DNA of 64,000 nt, taken from IMG/VR virus record IMGVR_UViG_3300021560_000014, positions 1-64,000 of that record; one strand, written 5' to 3'. Every line of letters starts with the position of its first letter. The stretch's first letter is position 1. The stretch comes from a virus. A model generated the notes under the pieces. It saw only the letters and a list, made by a program, of their open reading frames with translations. It was not told the DNA's origin and did no database searches. Both the position numbers and the translations under genes were made by a program. This document shows, in pieces, positions 2,413 through 25,371 of this stretch.

Positions 2413-2739
2413 ATGCTGTTAGAGATGCTGTACATTCTCCGCGATAAAGTGCCGGTCCTGGCGAGCGACCTGCTGGAATGGGCGACGTGGTTCGAGACCG
2501 CCGACCGTGTGGTGAAGCAGGAGCAGATTGGCCCCTGCTTCGTCTCGACGGTCTTCCTCGGTATCGACCACAACTTCTTTCGCGGCTCGGCGCCGCTGCT
2601 GTTTGAGACCATGGTGTTCTCCCATGGCACCTCCAACGACCTGTGGCAGGAGCGGGCCTCGACCTGGGAGCTGGCGCTCGAATGCCATCAGCGCGGGGTC
2701 GAGTGGGCCAAAGCCAACATAGAAGCGAAGCCCGAGTAA
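2413..2739 (+). CDS. Phage hypothetical protein (VSTVFLGIDH...FETMVF type)
   Basis: ORF with typical codon usage; its 3' end overlaps array 1. Confidence 0.7.
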   Translation: MLLEMLYILRDKVPVLASDLLEWATWFETADRVVKQEQIGPCFVSTVFLGIDHNFFRGSAPLLFETMVFSHGTSNDLWQERASTWELALECHQRGVEWAKANIEAKPE

Positions 2740-3035
2740 GCCGCGTGAACCATATCTCGACCGAAGCCCGACGTGCGTGCGTGAGCCGTGACCCACGCGG
2801 AACCCTTTGGTCAGGCGCGAGCCAAGGAAAACGCGCAATCCAGCCGACGAGCGCGAGCCAGAATATGCACGGAGCCCACTGTGTGGGCGCGAGCCGGAAA
2901 AGGTGCGGAGCCCATCCCTTGTGCGTGATCCACTTGTCGAGCGTGGTCCATAAAGAGAGCGTGAGCCTTGAGGTGCGCGTAACCCAACGCTCATTCGTGA
3001 GCCAGACACCAAGCGAAACCCATTTTCAGTGCGTG
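2707..3035 (+). ncRNA. TIGR-like dual-repeat guide array 1 (9 x 36-nt units)
   Basis: Exact 18-nt period, e.g. GCGTGAGCC gtgacccac GCGGAACCC tttggtcag GCGCGAGCC aaggaaaac GCGCAATCC agccgacga. Confidence 0.88.
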
Positions 3036-3487
3036 TAAACCTCATCAACCGCCGCTTCTTCCCGGAGACCTTCAAGGCCAATCCGTGGCGCTGGCGGCTG
3101 GCGCGGCTGCTCGACGACCCCCGCACCCGAGGCCGCCTCATCTGGGTCGAGGGCCGCGCGCCAACCAAGCCGCTGTCCGGCACGACGCTGCGCGACGAGC
3201 AGACCAACAATCAGGTGCCGTGCGAGCCGTTCGAGAACTGGCACTACAATTCCAACGTGGTCGATCTCGATGTTACCCTGGAAACCGTCACGGTCTGGTG
3301 GGCTGGGGTTGAACTCCTGCCGGAGTGGACCGACGAGGTGCTGGTGGTCGGCTTCGACAGCTGGTGGAAGCTCTCGGCCTCGGAGGACTGGGTTCGGCTG
3401 CTCGCACGGGGCCAATACTGGCTGGCCGATGGCGAGGTCAAGGAGGCCGGAACGTGGCCACAACGCGTGGTTGGAAAGAAGATTTAG
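3029..3487 (+). CDS. Hypothetical protein (Trp-rich)
   Basis: 152-aa ORF whose GTG start lies in the end of array 1. Confidence 0.6.
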   Translation: MRVNLINRRFFPETFKANPWRWRLARLLDDPRTRGRLIWVEGRAPTKPLSGTTLRDEQTNNQVPCEPFENWHYNSNVVDLDVTLETVTVWWAGVELLPEWTDEVLVVGFDSWWKLSASEDWVRLLARGQYWLADGEVKEAGTWPQRVVGKKI

Positions 3488-3657
3488 ATCCTTGGGGCTG
3501 CTCGCAGGAGTTCCACAATGCGGGCCGCTGGATTGTGCATCTGCGCGGTCCTAACCGGCCCAACAAGTTCATCATGGCTAGCGAGGATTATGCCCGTAGG
3601 CTGGTGGACTTGCTCAACGACTACGAACGGAGGCTTCGTGTCACGAATAGTCAGTGA
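3454..3657 (+). CDS. Small hypothetical protein
   Basis: AGGAGG at 3441 then GTG at 3454. Confidence 0.5.
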   Translation: MATTRGWKEDLDPWGCSQEFHNAGRWIVHLRGPNRPNKFIMASEDYARRLVDLLNDYERRLRVTNSQ

Positions 3658-3853
3658 ATTTAAGGTCACGAGGGAGGAACTCCCTAATGTTGATGACGTG
3701 GCCGTGGCGGTTCTCATTCTCGCGGAGGCCGTCAGGGATCTCACTCAGGAGGTGAAGAACCTTGGCCTCGCTGATGCCGACACGCGCATGGGCGCGCTGG
3801 AGCTGTTGGCCAAGGAGATTCACGACGGCCTTAAACAGCTGGCCGAACGCTAA
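3638..3853 (+). CDS. Small hypothetical protein
   Basis: GGAGG then GTG at 3638; stop overlaps the next ATG. Confidence 0.55.
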   Translation: MSRIVSEFKVTREELPNVDDVAVAVLILAEAVRDLTQEVKNLGLADADTRMGALELLAKEIHDGLKQLAER

Positions 3854-22850: not shown

Positions 22851-23314
22851 AGCTGAAGCTGGTCTTCAAGACTCCGCTGCAGGTGCAGATGGTGCCCGTG
22901 CCGCCGCCGCTGCGGGCGCGGGTGACCTCGAAGGTTGACGGATTGTCCCTAACAGGAGTTGGCGATATGGCCTACCAGTTACCCAATGACAAGCAGATCG
23001 AGGTCGGCATCTCGTATGTGGATGCCAAGGGCAATCCCGCCGTGGTTGACGGCGCGGTGACCTGGACCTCCTCCGATGAGACCATCATGACGATTCAGCC
23101 GGTGGCCTCACCGCCCGCTGGCTACCCGCAAGGCGGTGTGGTCATGCTGGTGCCGGTTGGCCCGGTGGGACAGGCGCAAGCCTCTGCTGTCGCTGACGCT
23201 GACATGGGCAGCGGCACGACCAACATCACCACGCTGTTCGATGTCCAGGTGCTGGCGGGCTCGGCGGTGGCGGGTACGATTCAGCCGATTGGAGACCCGG
23301 TGCCTAATCCGTGA
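22847..23314 (+). CDS. Ig-like hypothetical protein (true start may be ATG 22967)
   Basis: YVDAKGNPA.VDG.VTWTSSD; AGGAG upstream of the internal ATG. Confidence 0.6.
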   Translation: MKLKLVFKTPLQVQMVPVPPPLRARVTSKVDGLSLTGVGDMAYQLPNDKQIEVGISYVDAKGNPAVVDGAVTWTSSDETIMTIQPVASPPAGYPQGGVVMLVPVGPVGQAQASAVADADMGSGTTNITTLFDVQVLAGSAVAGTIQPIGDPVPNP

Positions 23315-23317
23315 GTT

Positions 23318-23911
23318 ATGGCAGCCGTTCTTGCAAAAGAGATCGTGCTGAGCGAGAAGGACGTTAAGCGCTTCCTCGCCATCTTCGACACGATCAAGAA
23401 GGGTAGCGGCTGCTGGCTGTGGCCAAAGTCGGCTCCTAATAGCTACGGGCGTTTTCATGTAGAGGGTAAGGGAAGCTACAAAGCTAGCCGCATTGCTTAT
23501 TACCTCTTTGTCGAAAAATCCCTTTTGCCGTCTGATCTGGTTCTCCATTCCTGTGACAATCCGCCCTGCGTCAGACCGTTCCACTTGAGAAAAGGAACTC
23601 ACAAGCAAAATCAGCAGGACTGTGTCGTGAAAGGGCGCAAGCGCGTAGCTGTAGGAGATCGCCACTGGTCTCGAAGACACCCTGAGCTTGTGGCAAGCGG
23701 TGCGCGGCATGGAACAAGGACGCGGCCCGACCGTATCGCACGAGGAGAGCAGCGTGGGATGAACGGTTTGAAGGCAGCGCAGGTTCTAGAGATACGTCAG
23801 CTGTATGGGCAGGAGAACCATTTGTCGCAGCATCAGCTGGCTCGGAAGTTTGGGGTTACGGCGATGACGATCAACCGGGCTCTCCGTCGTCAGACGTGGA
23901 GTCATATATGA
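23318..23911 (+). CDS. HNH homing endonuclease
   Basis: [34 protein letters not shown]-terminal HTH; visibly more AT-rich than neighbours. Confidence 0.9.
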   Translation: MAAVLAKEIVLSEKDVKRFLAIFDTIKKGSGCWLWPKSAPNSYGRFHVEGKGSYKASRIAYYLFVEKSLLPSDLVLHSCDNPPCVRPFHLRKGTHKQNQQDCVVKGRKRVAVGDRHWSRRHPELVASGARHGTRTRPDRIARGEQRGMNGLKAAQVLEIRQLYGQENHLSQHQLARKFGVTAMTINRALRRQTWSHI

Positions 23912-25335
23912 TCACGGGGATAACTGTCTCGGTTGATAGAACATCATACAGCCGCTACGGTGACGACTTCCCCATAGTCACAATCACCGGCAAGGCGGCG
24001 GGCGCGGTCGGCGGTGAGCAGGTCGTGATCACGCTCTCGCGCACGGTGCTCTCTGGGCAGTACCAGCTGTTTATCACAACAGTGATAGTCCCAGCTGGGG
24101 GCGCGTTCACCGACACCATCGATCTCCGCACGGTCAAGGACACCAACGGCTTCAGCTCGGCTAGTATCTCGAAGGAATTTAACGACTACACCGTCACCGC
24201 CTCGGACGCGACTGACCCGCTGACCTTTGCCACCACCAACTTCAGCGTGCTGCCGTTCACGGTCGATCAGGTCAAAGCCCGCTGGTGCGCTGGGCTGCCG
24301 CTCATCACCTATGAGAAGCTCCAGGCCGTCAATCAGCCGGTCCAGGTGACCGGCGTCACCCTGGGGCAGCCTTCCTTCGGTTCCATCGTCGGCCCGTACC
24401 AGCTGCAATTCTCGGCCTCTCCCACGCCCTCGATCTCGTGGACCAGCGGCGCATTGCTCGGCGGCCTCGCGATGCCCGGCACCCAGGTGCCGATTCCGGC
24501 CAGCGGGACCTACATCCTGCCCGACGTGATCGGACGGGGCGCGATCCCGGCGACGGTCAATTTCGCCCAGCTGCCAACGACTGCGGCCAGCGACACCATC
24601 TATGTCGGCTTCGGCACCATCACCGATGAGGCCATCATCCGCGAGATCATCTCGATGACGGCGCAGATCCAGGAGTTCATGAACATCCTGTTCGAGCCGA
24701 CCTACATCACGACCCAGAACATGCTGGAGCTGGAGCCACTCATCCCGACCGTGGTCGAGAAGATCGGGATGGCGATCAACTTCTACAAGCCTGACAACTG
24801 GCTCAAGTGGCTGGAGTTCAAGTGCCCCTACATGCCGCTGCTGAAGTTCTTCCAGCTCTCGGGCTACTTCAACAAGACCAAGGCCATCGACATCGACGAG
24901 GAGCATCTTATCTCCTTCGACGAGCGCAGCGCTGAGGTTCAATTTGTCCCGTCCAACCTCGCGGTGGTGAACTCGTTCTTCATCGGGCCGGGCGTCTATA
25001 TCATGTTTTTCAACCAGATATACGTGCCCCAGTTCTGGAACTATTACGTGGTGTGCGGCTACCGCAACCTGCCAGCTGCCATCGCTGACTATATAGCCAA
25101 ACGTGTCGCCATCGACCTGCTCAACATTGCCGGGCAGGCTCGCTACCCGGCAGGCATGGCCGGTCAATCGACCTCGCGCGACGGTATCAGTGAGTCAACC
25201 TCGATCCTTGCCGGAGTTTACAAGACCTACATCGATCAGTACGAGCAGGACTTGGGCAGGACGCCGGATGGCCAGGACCAGATGATGAAGAGCCTCAGGA
25301 ACCGTTTTCGCGGGCTCGCTTTCACCACCCTGTGA
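23908..25335 (+). CDS. Putative head-tail connector or neck protein
   Basis: C-terminal LPAAIADYIAK...AG...S.S.DG.S.S resembles myovirus neck proteins. Confidence 0.6.
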   Translation: MITGITVSVDRTSYSRYGDDFPIVTITGKAAGAVGGEQVVITLSRTVLSGQYQLFITTVIVPAGGAFTDTIDLRTVKDTNGFSSASISKEFNDYTVTASDATDPLTFATTNFSVLPFTVDQVKARWCAGLPLITYEKLQAVNQPVQVTGVTLGQPSFGSIVGPYQLQFSASPTPSISWTSGALLGGLAMPGTQVPIPASGTYILPDVIGRGAIPATVNFAQLPTTAASDTIYVGFGTITDEAIIREIISMTAQIQEFMNILFEPTYITTQNMLELEPLIPTVVEKIGMAINFYKPDNWLKWLEFKCPYMPLLKFFQLSGYFNKTKAIDIDEEHLISFDERSAEVQFVPSNLAVVNSFFIGPGVYIMFFNQIYVPQFWNYYVVCGYRNLPAAIADYIAKRVAIDLLNIAGQARYPAGMAGQSTSRDGISESTSILAGVYKTYIDQYEQDLGRTPDGQDQMMKSLRNRFRGLAFTTL

Positions 25336-25371
25336 CACGCTCGACCTTTGGGGCTCGCGTAAATCATGGCT
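25336..25371 (-). ncRNA. Solitary TIGR-like 36-nt unit
   Basis: Reverse complement reads AGCC atgatttac GCGAGCCCC aaaggtcga GCGTG. Confidence 0.7.

Follow-up and report, generated by a model that had tools for sequence, protein, structure and literature searches.

Genes and repeat arrays in the window

The DNA analysed here, referred to as the window, comprises positions 1–64,000 of a 105,936-bp phage record from a soil metagenome. The record is linear and ∼76% complete, its 5′ end falling in a truncated gene, and the only sequencing run listed as containing the sequence is its probable source, a soil DNA run, with no RNA run among those listed. Family searches bore out as neighbours of the arrays described below (Table 1) terL, the beta-helix protein and a multi-domain protein of 1772 aa (the same length as in the source gene call), but the ORF that had been read as a neck gene matches a tail-fibre PHROG instead. 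The window holds no tRNA genes, nor any match to Rfam at gathering thresholds, CRISPR repeat families included.

Among these genes lie arrays of a 36-nt unit in which two repeats alternate: the edge repeat GCGYGAGCC, 9 nt, the A/G-rich loop repeat GCGRRRCCC and a further 9 nt. Position weights resolve each unit into two conserved and two variable 9-mers, and spacers of 9 nt occur in 74 of 83 strict units. The reality of these guide arrays, as proposed in the preliminary description, is borne out by several approaches. TRF reported 36- and 18-nt periods at 4191–4364, 6100–6163, 7015–7091 and 18408–18502; GCGYGAGCC (≤1 mismatch) is spaced at 36-nt intervals; a unit HMM gave 46 matches at E≤0.01 across the 64-kb window; and a two-edge pattern gave 29 matches compared with 0 in the reversed control. 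Alternating distinct repeats, ∼9-nt spacers and a 36-nt unit constitute the dual-repeat TIGR architecture, and the terminal truncated edge repeat of TIGR-Tas dual-repeat arrays is also present, GCGTG or GCGCG running into diverged bases at 3031, 4567, 6909, 7087 and 18548. The window arrays are genuine TIGR dual-repeat arrays, well above chance. Checked for box C/D character (CCA 3′, UG 5′), the last two bases of both repeats are CC, and the next base is A in 55–57% and G in 27–37% of units; on the box D side the edge repeat carries YG (T in 35%), and UG is absent from the loop repeat. Both repeats start with GCG, unlike those of TasR, which are reported to start with UG.

In CRISPR-Cas loci one repeat of 23–47 nt is interspersed with single spacers of about its own length, and cas genes are present. 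We rejected a CRISPR-Cas identity because the arrays here alternate a pair of 9-nt repeats, each followed by a 9-nt spacer, and because no Rfam CRISPR repeat family matched.

Table 1. Genes, arrays and solitary units; coordinates above 64,000 are in contig numbering, which continues that of the window
Feature	Position	Strand	Evidence or remarks
Ribonucleotide reductase ORF	91–2010		Pfam domains including barrel and TSCPD
Solitary TIGR-like unit	1333–1368	+	Unit HMM 15.6 bits, E 0.002; inside ribonucleotide reductase ORF
Small ORF, 108 aa	2413–2739	+	
Array A1, ∼9 units	2707–3041	+	Repeat parse; 9 HMM matches, mean 23.0 bits
Small ORF, 152 aa	3029–3487	+	
Small ORF, 67 aa	3454–3657	+	
Small ORF, 71 aa	3638–3853	+	
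Small ORF, 102 aa	3853–4161	+	
Array A2, 10–11 units	4174–4575	+	TRF, repeat parse, HMM
terL (large terminase)	4586–6088	+	Pfam Terminase_6N (5.8e-13) and Terminase_6C; A2 and A3 on either side
Sub-array A3a, 4–5 units	6083–6255	+	Repeat parse, HMM
Sub-array A3b, ∼14–17 units	6296–6917	+	Repeat parse, HMM; spacers 7–12 nt
Sub-array A3c, 3 units	6962–7095	+	Repeat parse, HMM
1772-aa multi-domain virion-type protein	15840–21158	+	DUF7178 and InPase domains
Array A4, 4 exact 36-nt units with degenerate flanks	18386–18556	+	Repeat parse, HMM
ORF	23896–25335		Tail-fibre PHROG
Single degenerate unit	25336–25371	−	HMM 16.1 bits, E 0.0015
Arrays with identical repeat pair	72808–72880, 73236–73432, 86593–86799, 95368–95493, 96929–97249	−	Parse, HMM
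Arrays with identical repeat pair	76783–76851, 76894–77409	+	Parse, HMM
Array ∼10 nt past tas stop, 6–7 units	87334–87583	−	Parse, HMM
tas, TasA-type solo Nop	87586–88620	−	Profile and structure match; arrays on both sides
Array directly upstream of tas, ∼10 units	88604–88988	−	Parse, HMM

Five array loci had been described in the window. Four of these stand, A1, A2, A3 (6083–7095; ∼21–24 units in its three sub-arrays) and A4, but the fifth is a weak minus-strand unit, an edge repeat and spacer without a proper loop repeat, placed directly after the stop codon of the ORF with the tail-fibre match. The solitary unit in the ribonucleotide reductase gene lies in the stretch joining the barrel domain to the TSCPD domain, flanked by two copies of a dispersed 23-nt motif. 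A1 begins in the final codons of ORF 2413–2739 and runs over the start of ORF 3029–3487; A2 ends 11 nt upstream of the terL start codon, and the terL stop codon falls within the first edge-like repeat of A3a. Since A2 contains four tandem edge-only 18-nt repeats, at 4298–4369, and the spacers of A3b are irregular, some units may be non-functional.

Array A4 is in frame and free of stop codons within the gene for the 1772-aa protein, where its translation is a 12-aa-periodic linker rich in Arg, Glu, Asp and Pro. No homologue of comparable length was retrieved for the central region of this protein against which A4 might be recognised as an insertion. A copy of the 23-nt motif lies downstream of A4, at 18566–18588.

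A tas gene outside the window

No Nop, IS110 or RuvC signature had been recognised among the array neighbours, and this was upheld by four six-frame profile searches (Pfam Nop, Pfam Transposase_20, NCBIfam TIGR_Tas_endo and a Tas-family profile), none of which had a match inside the window. The five small ORFs between 2413 and 4161 have no Tas/Nop signature and no six-frame Tas match; all are below the length of the Tas Nop model (215 positions) and none has a Pfam, PHROG or NCBIfam family, except for a weak unknown-function PHROG for ORF 3853–4161. One of them, ORF 3029–3487, had been put forward as an unrecognised partner of the arrays. Its place between A1 and A2 and its lack of a known family would suit such a role, but the protein is too short for the Nop model, gives no six-frame match to the Tas profile even at E≤10, has one homologue in 5.8 billion clusters and has no usable match in the protein atlas; its AF2 model, from a two-sequence alignment, is unusable (pLDDT 32). 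With a bona fide Tas already on the contig, we consider a partnership of this ORF with the arrays extremely improbable.

That Tas is the product of the single tas gene detected in the 105,936 bp by the four six-frame searches, outside the window and ∼62 kb beyond its last array. The proposal that the arrays are orphans is thus correct only locally: no tas adjoins any window array, but the contig carries a canonical tas with its own arrays on either side, built from the same repeats, and for the genome the orphan claim falls. Pfam Nop itself had no six-frame match in the whole record. The Tas protein, called as 330 aa in the source and 344 aa long when read from its first in-frame start, scores 115 bits against NCBIfam NF052498 (TIGR_Tas_endo; cut-off 100) and matches TasR 9MTY by phmmer, and its family profile retrieves TasR 9MTY (9e-29), TasH (1e-15) and IS621 (5e-5) from the PDB. 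Its AF2 model (pLDDT 85.6, pTM 0.81) is all-helical, with ∼45 N-terminal residues of low confidence; in a Foldseek search of the PDB the top 10 matches were all TasH or TasR, followed by IS621 and ISCro4. The protein consists of a Nop domain and a coiled coil, with no HNH, RuvC or other nuclease Pfam domain, and its profile alignment is limited to TasR residues 121–323, C-terminal to the RuvC domain of that protein. Because it has no nuclease domain, the contig Tas is of the TasA type (solo Nop).

IS110-family RNA-guided recombinases have an N-terminal DEDD/RuvC-like catalytic domain and use a single bridge RNA. Membership of this family was rejected, the Transposase_20 match being weak and C-terminal only and that to IS621 covering only residues 130–240, as was an IS110 bridge-RNA system, since arrays are present rather than a single bridge RNA.

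A Tyr/His dyad for pre-tigRNA processing, with a catalytic Tyr, lies on a C-terminal loop and is Y289/H296 in SpTasH (PMC13421893). The Tas family consensus at this loop is PY-x4-LGH. The contig Tas keeps the His but has Trp in place of the dyad Tyr, with a 6-residue insertion next to it, and so do the two relatives closest to it, at 66% and 60% identity. Self-processing by this Tas is therefore not assured, although the dyad Tyr is Trp in TaTasR as well, which nevertheless gives 36-nt tigRNAs in E. coli.

Among IMG/VR loci encoding relatives of this Tas, 76 of 80 have periodic arrays near the gene, which ties the family to TIGR arrays; those with a 36-nt period mostly lie within ∼2.3 kb of the tas-family gene. 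A tblastn search of cultured-phage records with the Tas protein gave no match. The relatives' repeats are GAGCGAGCCA and GAGAGNACCA. All arrays of the contig, including those flanking tas, share a single repeat pair, and an exact IMG/VR scan for this pair returned 0 further contigs. In total, ∼95 units occupy at least 14 sites between 1.3 and 97 kb of the contig, whereas in the whole records of nine relatives every array belongs to a single cluster beside tas. The scattered layout is unusual, and its first description as such was an understatement.

Probable distal arrays of one TIGR-TasA system

The window arrays most likely belong, as distal arrays, to a single dual-repeat TIGR-TasA system encoded by the phage. 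Their units score 20–24 bits with the unit HMM, compared with 22.8 and 22.9 for the two arrays flanking tas, and are therefore not decayed copies; this equality makes function in trans with the distant TasA most likely. Of the possibilities first suggested, the evidence favours an effector encoded at another place in the genome and working in trans. A different effector might instead use some or all of the arrays, either a nuclease-bearing TasH or TasR encoded in the missing ∼24% of the phage genome or a Tas of the host or a co-infecting element. The incomplete, 5′-truncated record leaves room for the former, but every array shares the repeat pair that flanks the resident tas, TIGR repeats are locus-specific (PMC12045711) and the repeat pattern occurs in no other IMG/VR contig. 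Nothing favours a host or co-infecting Tas and, given the resident gene, none is needed; a second effector is very unlikely.

A dispersed element of 23–32 nt is also found next to arrays. Several abut copies of the 23-nt motif; in several, the first edge repeat is truncated at its 5′ end and joined to the element, and in others the element lies at the far end in inverted orientation. A3b is bracketed by inverted copies, the 30-nt arms at 6269–6298 and 6917–6946 being 90% complementary. Identical repeats and motif in both halves of the contig argue against a chimeric assembly. A block of motif, leader and first unit is duplicated at contig 76756–76930, and one whole unit is present twice, at 97099 and 97028. 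These traces, together with the two solitary units and the edge-only repeats of A2, would fit arrays that are passenger DNA, spread by duplication or by the dispersed element and tolerated in gaps and linkers, with guides coming from the tas-proximal arrays only. However, repeat conservation in the window equals that beside tas, the spacers of strict guides are all unique except in one duplicated unit outside the window, and array orientation always follows that of the local genes; spread by duplication is, moreover, compatible with function. We therefore regard passenger DNA as an unlikely explanation. A point against trans-acting guides is that excising A4 from its transcript would cut the mRNA for the virion protein.

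If the window arrays do serve the distant TasA, the following scheme can be proposed. The arrays occupy intergenic gaps and are oriented with their neighbours, and are therefore probably co-transcribed with the flanking phage operons, including the structural and packaging genes of the window; a scan for sigma-70 promoters and intrinsic terminators near the arrays scored no higher than shuffled sequence and is uninformative. TasA binds 36-nt tigRNAs (PMC12045711), and the transcripts, cut to this size, would be taken up in trans by TasA dimers. Guide-dependent repression of transcription by TasA has been reported (bioRxiv 10.64898/2026.09.09.750476). These complexes would be expected to recognise DNA targets of 18 bp and, since TasA has no nuclease, to obstruct transcription or replication without cleavage. 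For 83 strict guides (≤3 mismatches, both target geometries, gaps of 0–2), self-targets showed no excess over re-paired controls; the targets presumably lie outside the phage itself, with the host or competing mobile elements as their most likely location. In the genome collections a target of 18 nt is expected to recur many times by chance alone.

A more speculative extension, to which we give a low but not negligible probability, is that TIGR arrays became mobile or duplicating cassettes linked to the dispersed element. Their spread might have placed guides in early, middle and late units and in a virion-protein gene, supplying one nuclease-free TasA with ∼100 guides throughout infection, with which either the host or rival elements would be silenced.

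Discussion

TIGR-Tas systems were described in 2025. Dual-repeat TIGR-TasA loci such as that of Flavonifractor plautii (FpTIGR; Faure et al. 2025, PMC12045711) resemble the present system in their A-rich loop repeat and terminal truncated edge repeat, in a solo-Nop Tas with arrays both upstream and downstream, and in a phage or mobile-element context. The arrays of this phage differ in extending past the tas locus, over ∼96 kb that include the packaging and structural module, and in that one of them lies in frame within a non-tas gene. SpTasH (Salicola phage CGphi29; PDB 9W03/21KL) and TaTasR (9MTY) have a Nop domain homologous by profile and fold, and a C-terminal loop with a conserved His; the Tas described here differs in having no HNH or RuvC domain, in its 6-residue insertion and in the replacement of the dyad Tyr by Trp, which it shares with TaTasR. 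Intragenic tigRNAs, reported in tas coding sequences only (Xu et al. 2026, bioRxiv 10.64898/2026.09.09.750476), likewise consist of in-frame units in a disordered, linker-like stretch, whereas the gene that houses A4 is unrelated and ∼69 kb from tas. Scattered guides served in trans by one Nop-domain protein, Nop5, are also seen in archaeal box C/D sRNA genes, but these are single genes rather than short tandem arrays; here the target is presumed to be DNA, there is no fibrillarin or L7Ae partner and Pfam Nop does not match. Orphan or distal CRISPR arrays similarly have no effector beside them and carry the repeat found at an effector locus far away, but the present arrays have two short alternating repeats, split spacers, another effector family and no adaptation genes.

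Published surveys examined arrays around tas genes, and arrays distant from tas would thus have been missed. In this phage one TasA coexists with well-conserved guide units at sites tens of kilobases away, and arrays that seem effector-less in a genome fragment should be labelled orphans only once the entire genome has been searched. The traces of unit and leader-unit duplication and the in-frame A4 make both array spread and trans-loading testable. If arrays do spread as cassettes, this phage would offer a first handle on how TIGR arrays originate and expand.

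A tas gene beyond the window

Sequence reading of 2400-7200 on the + strand revealed a 36-nt unit in long runs, for which position weights (n=59 units) gave the consensus GCG[C/T]GAGCC-N9-GCG[A/G/C][A/G][A/G]CCC-N9 (N, variable base), with A or G as the first spacer base in most units. A truncated GCGYG closes the arrays, and the second repeat is rich in A and G; in the terminology of Faure et al. 2025 (PMC12045711) this makes the first repeat the edge repeat and the other one the loop repeat. The sense strand of the window arrays is the + strand. At E<=0.01 a hidden Markov model of the unit detected 95 units across the record, 46 of them in the window, and arrays almost completely fill the intergenic gaps. 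One stretch of the second array (4298-4369) is non-canonical, consisting of four tandem 18-nt repeats, GCGTGAGCC followed by gaacaaagg or aaacaaagg, in which the edge repeat and a nearly identical spacer recur without intervening loop repeats.

Coordinates of TIGR arrays, single units and the tas gene on the contig. Further arrays come from an edge-repeat scan of the rest of the record
Feature	Position	Strand	Remarks
Solitary unit	1333-1368		Unit HMM
Robust array A1	2707-3041	+	Overlaps end of ORF 2413-2739 and start of ORF 3029-3487
Robust array A2	4174-4575	+	3' end 11 nt ahead of terL
Robust sub-array A3	6083-6255	+	terL stop codon within first repeat
Robust sub-array A3	6296-6917	+	Bracketed by 30-nt inverted arms
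Robust sub-array A3	6962-7095	+	Unit HMM
Robust array A4	18386-18556	+	In frame and stop-free within 1772-aa ORF 15840-21158
Lone weak unit (fifth locus)	25336-25371	-	Unit HMM, E 0.0015
Further array	72.8 kb		
Further array	73.3 kb		
Further array	76.8-77.4 kb		
Further array	86.6-86.8 kb		
Further array	87.3-87.6 kb		
tas	87586-88620	-	Between arrays 87.3-87.6 and 88.6-89.0 kb
Further array	88.6-89.0 kb		
Further array	95.4 kb		
Further array	96.9-97.2 kb		

Even at a threshold of E<=10, six-frame searches of the whole record with Pfam Nop, Pfam Transposase_20, NCBIfam TIGR_Tas_endo and a Tas-family profile of 45 sequences matched nothing in the window, confirming the preliminary description in that the window holds no Tas/Nop effector gene. 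The small ORFs singled out there belong to no Pfam or NCBIfam family, their sole PHROG match being a weak one of unknown function at 3853-4161. ORF 3029-3487, a suggested partner, has one homologue only and at 152 aa falls short of the 215 positions of the Tas Nop model; its AlphaFold model (pLDDT 32) was unusable for a fold check.

The arrays are genuine, but the further claim that they are orphans does not survive, as a tas gene flanked by arrays lies on the same contig, a finding that the preliminary description had itself set as the refutation of that claim. Its product (344 aa; 330 aa in the source's gene call) matched the TasR structure 9MTY by phmmer and exceeded the NCBIfam NF052498 cut-off (115 bits against 100). 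Its homologues number 120 (about 270-300 aa; several carry Pfam Transposase_20), and a profile of 45 of them matched TasR 9MTY (9e-29), TasH (1e-15) and the IS621 recombinase (5e-5). In a fold comparison with the PDB, the confident AlphaFold model of the product (pLDDT 85.6, pTM 0.81) had only TasH or TasR chains among its ten best matches, with IS621 and ISCro4 next. Because the product is all-helical, without an HNH or RuvC domain, it is of TasA type. Among relatives in IMG/VR, 76 of 80 loci have arrays near the gene; the arrays with a 36-nt period mostly lie within about 2.3 kb of it. The relatives' repeats GAGCGAGCCA and GAGAGNACCA are similar to those of this phage.

Probable loading in trans and guide processing

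The preliminary description had also proposed an effector located elsewhere and acting in trans. The location is now established; the action in trans we infer. One repeat pair is common to all arrays of the contig, mean unit scores of the window arrays (19.6-24.1 bits) are on par with those of the tas-flanking arrays (22.8 and 22.9), and each array runs in the direction of its neighbouring genes, which together suggest loading of the window arrays on the resident TasA as the most economical reading. A caveat may attach to pre-tigRNA processing by this TasA. SpTasH cuts pre-tigRNA by a Tyr/His dyad, Y289/H296 (PMC13421893), which aligns to the family motif PY-x4-LGH; in this TasA and its two closest relatives the Tyr position is Trp, the His is retained and there is a 6-residue insertion. 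The same Trp occurs in TaTasR, yet 36-nt tigRNAs were produced in E. coli (PMC12045711).

Array A4, together with a motif copy, is in frame (18386-18588) within a virion-type protein, not a Tas, and codes for a stretch rich in Arg, Glu, Asp and Pro that has a periodicity of 12 residues. Xu et al. 2026 (bioRxiv 10.64898/2026.09.09.750476) describe intragenic tigRNAs solely within tas genes. No homologue spanning the A4 region of the 1772-aa protein was found with which to test insertion by comparison.

A dispersed motif and traces of duplication

A 23-nt motif, GCGGCCCCGTTTCCTGCCCACCC, is a feature separate from the arrays yet touching them. The contig carries 40 copies of its 15-nt core, against a chance expectation of none; the window holds 18 copies of the motif with <=3 mismatches (1309-61280), and 31 of the 40 are on the + strand irrespective of local gene direction. 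[quoted passage not shown] Candidate roles for it are those of promoter or leader, of stop or processing site, and of protein-binding or mobile element.

The motif is asymmetric and often lengthened to about 32 nt by CACCTTCGTT on its 5' side, and its consensus as read is stop-free in all six frames. In the orientation opposite to GCGGCCCCGTTTCCTGCCCACCC it often lies just 5' of a start codon, supplying an AAGGTG-like ribosome-binding site. Its core includes GGGCAGGA, similar to the FtsK-orienting sequence GGGNAGGG, and an FtsK/SpoIIIE-like protein is encoded by the phage at contig 71623-72801. The ribonucleotide reductase ORF (91-2010) carries four in-frame copies and one TIGR-like unit at 1309-1907; the copies encode AAPFPAH-like peptides and lie in the barrel-TSCPD linker and 3' of the TSCPD domain.

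At 76756-76930 a block of motif, leader and first unit (motif, GCGTAGCCC, attggttga, edge repeat) is duplicated, and at 97028-97134 a whole unit with spacers ATGCCTGAA and GTTTGAAGA is duplicated exactly, the copies at 97028 and 97099 being 71 nt apart. Both are marks left by segmental duplication as the arrays grew. Separately, ORF 36033-38660 contains a perfect tandem duplication of 42 nt at 37834-37923 (2.1 copies, 100% match).

The 14-unit array at 76894-77409 occupies a divergent intergenic region with a motif copy upstream; 3' of it (77409-77480) are a T run and a hairpin (AATGCCC..GGGCATT) followed by TTTA. The array resembles an independent transcription unit, as opposed to the operon-embedded window arrays.

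Targets and layout of the guide repertoire

TasA proteins bind 36-nt tigRNAs (PMC12045711) and exert guide-dependent, reversible transcription repression (bioRxiv 10.64898/2026.09.09.750476). Allowing gaps of 0-2 and <=3 mismatches, we searched the array-masked contig with 83 strict guides in both possible geometries of the two spacers of a unit, A+rc(B) and rc(A)+B. The counts equalled those of re-paired-spacer controls, demonstrating no detectable self-targeting by the phage; the guides probably target host genes or rival mobile elements. Spacers of these guides are purine-rich (57-61%), with a G+C content of 47% against 62% for the phage genome. They are either not drawn from sequence of this genome's composition or under compositional constraint.

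The linear IMG/VR record (105,936 bp; CheckV completeness about 76%), of which the window comprises bases 1-64000, begins within a truncated ribonucleotide reductase gene. A soil metagenome, probably the source, was the only sequencing-run match. By terL, which shares 40% identity with it, the nearest cultured relative is a phage of Tunturiibacter (Acidobacteriota). No other IMG/VR contig carried the repeat pair of the present arrays, and a search of the available literature for orphan tigRNA arrays matched only an unrelated review; the published survey looked for arrays around tas loci.

The whole records of ten relatives were scanned by the same kind of array pattern. In nine, six of them >=90% complete, all matches except three isolated, probably chance ones were confined to a single cluster per record, of <=2.3 kb and at the tas locus; the tenth gave none. 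On this contig an equivalent pattern found ten distinct clusters spread from 2.8 to 97 kb (reversed control 0), and the HMM at least 14 array sites, bearing out the impression of an unusual layout. The system is a TIGR-TasA of known kind whose guide repertoire is unusually dispersed.
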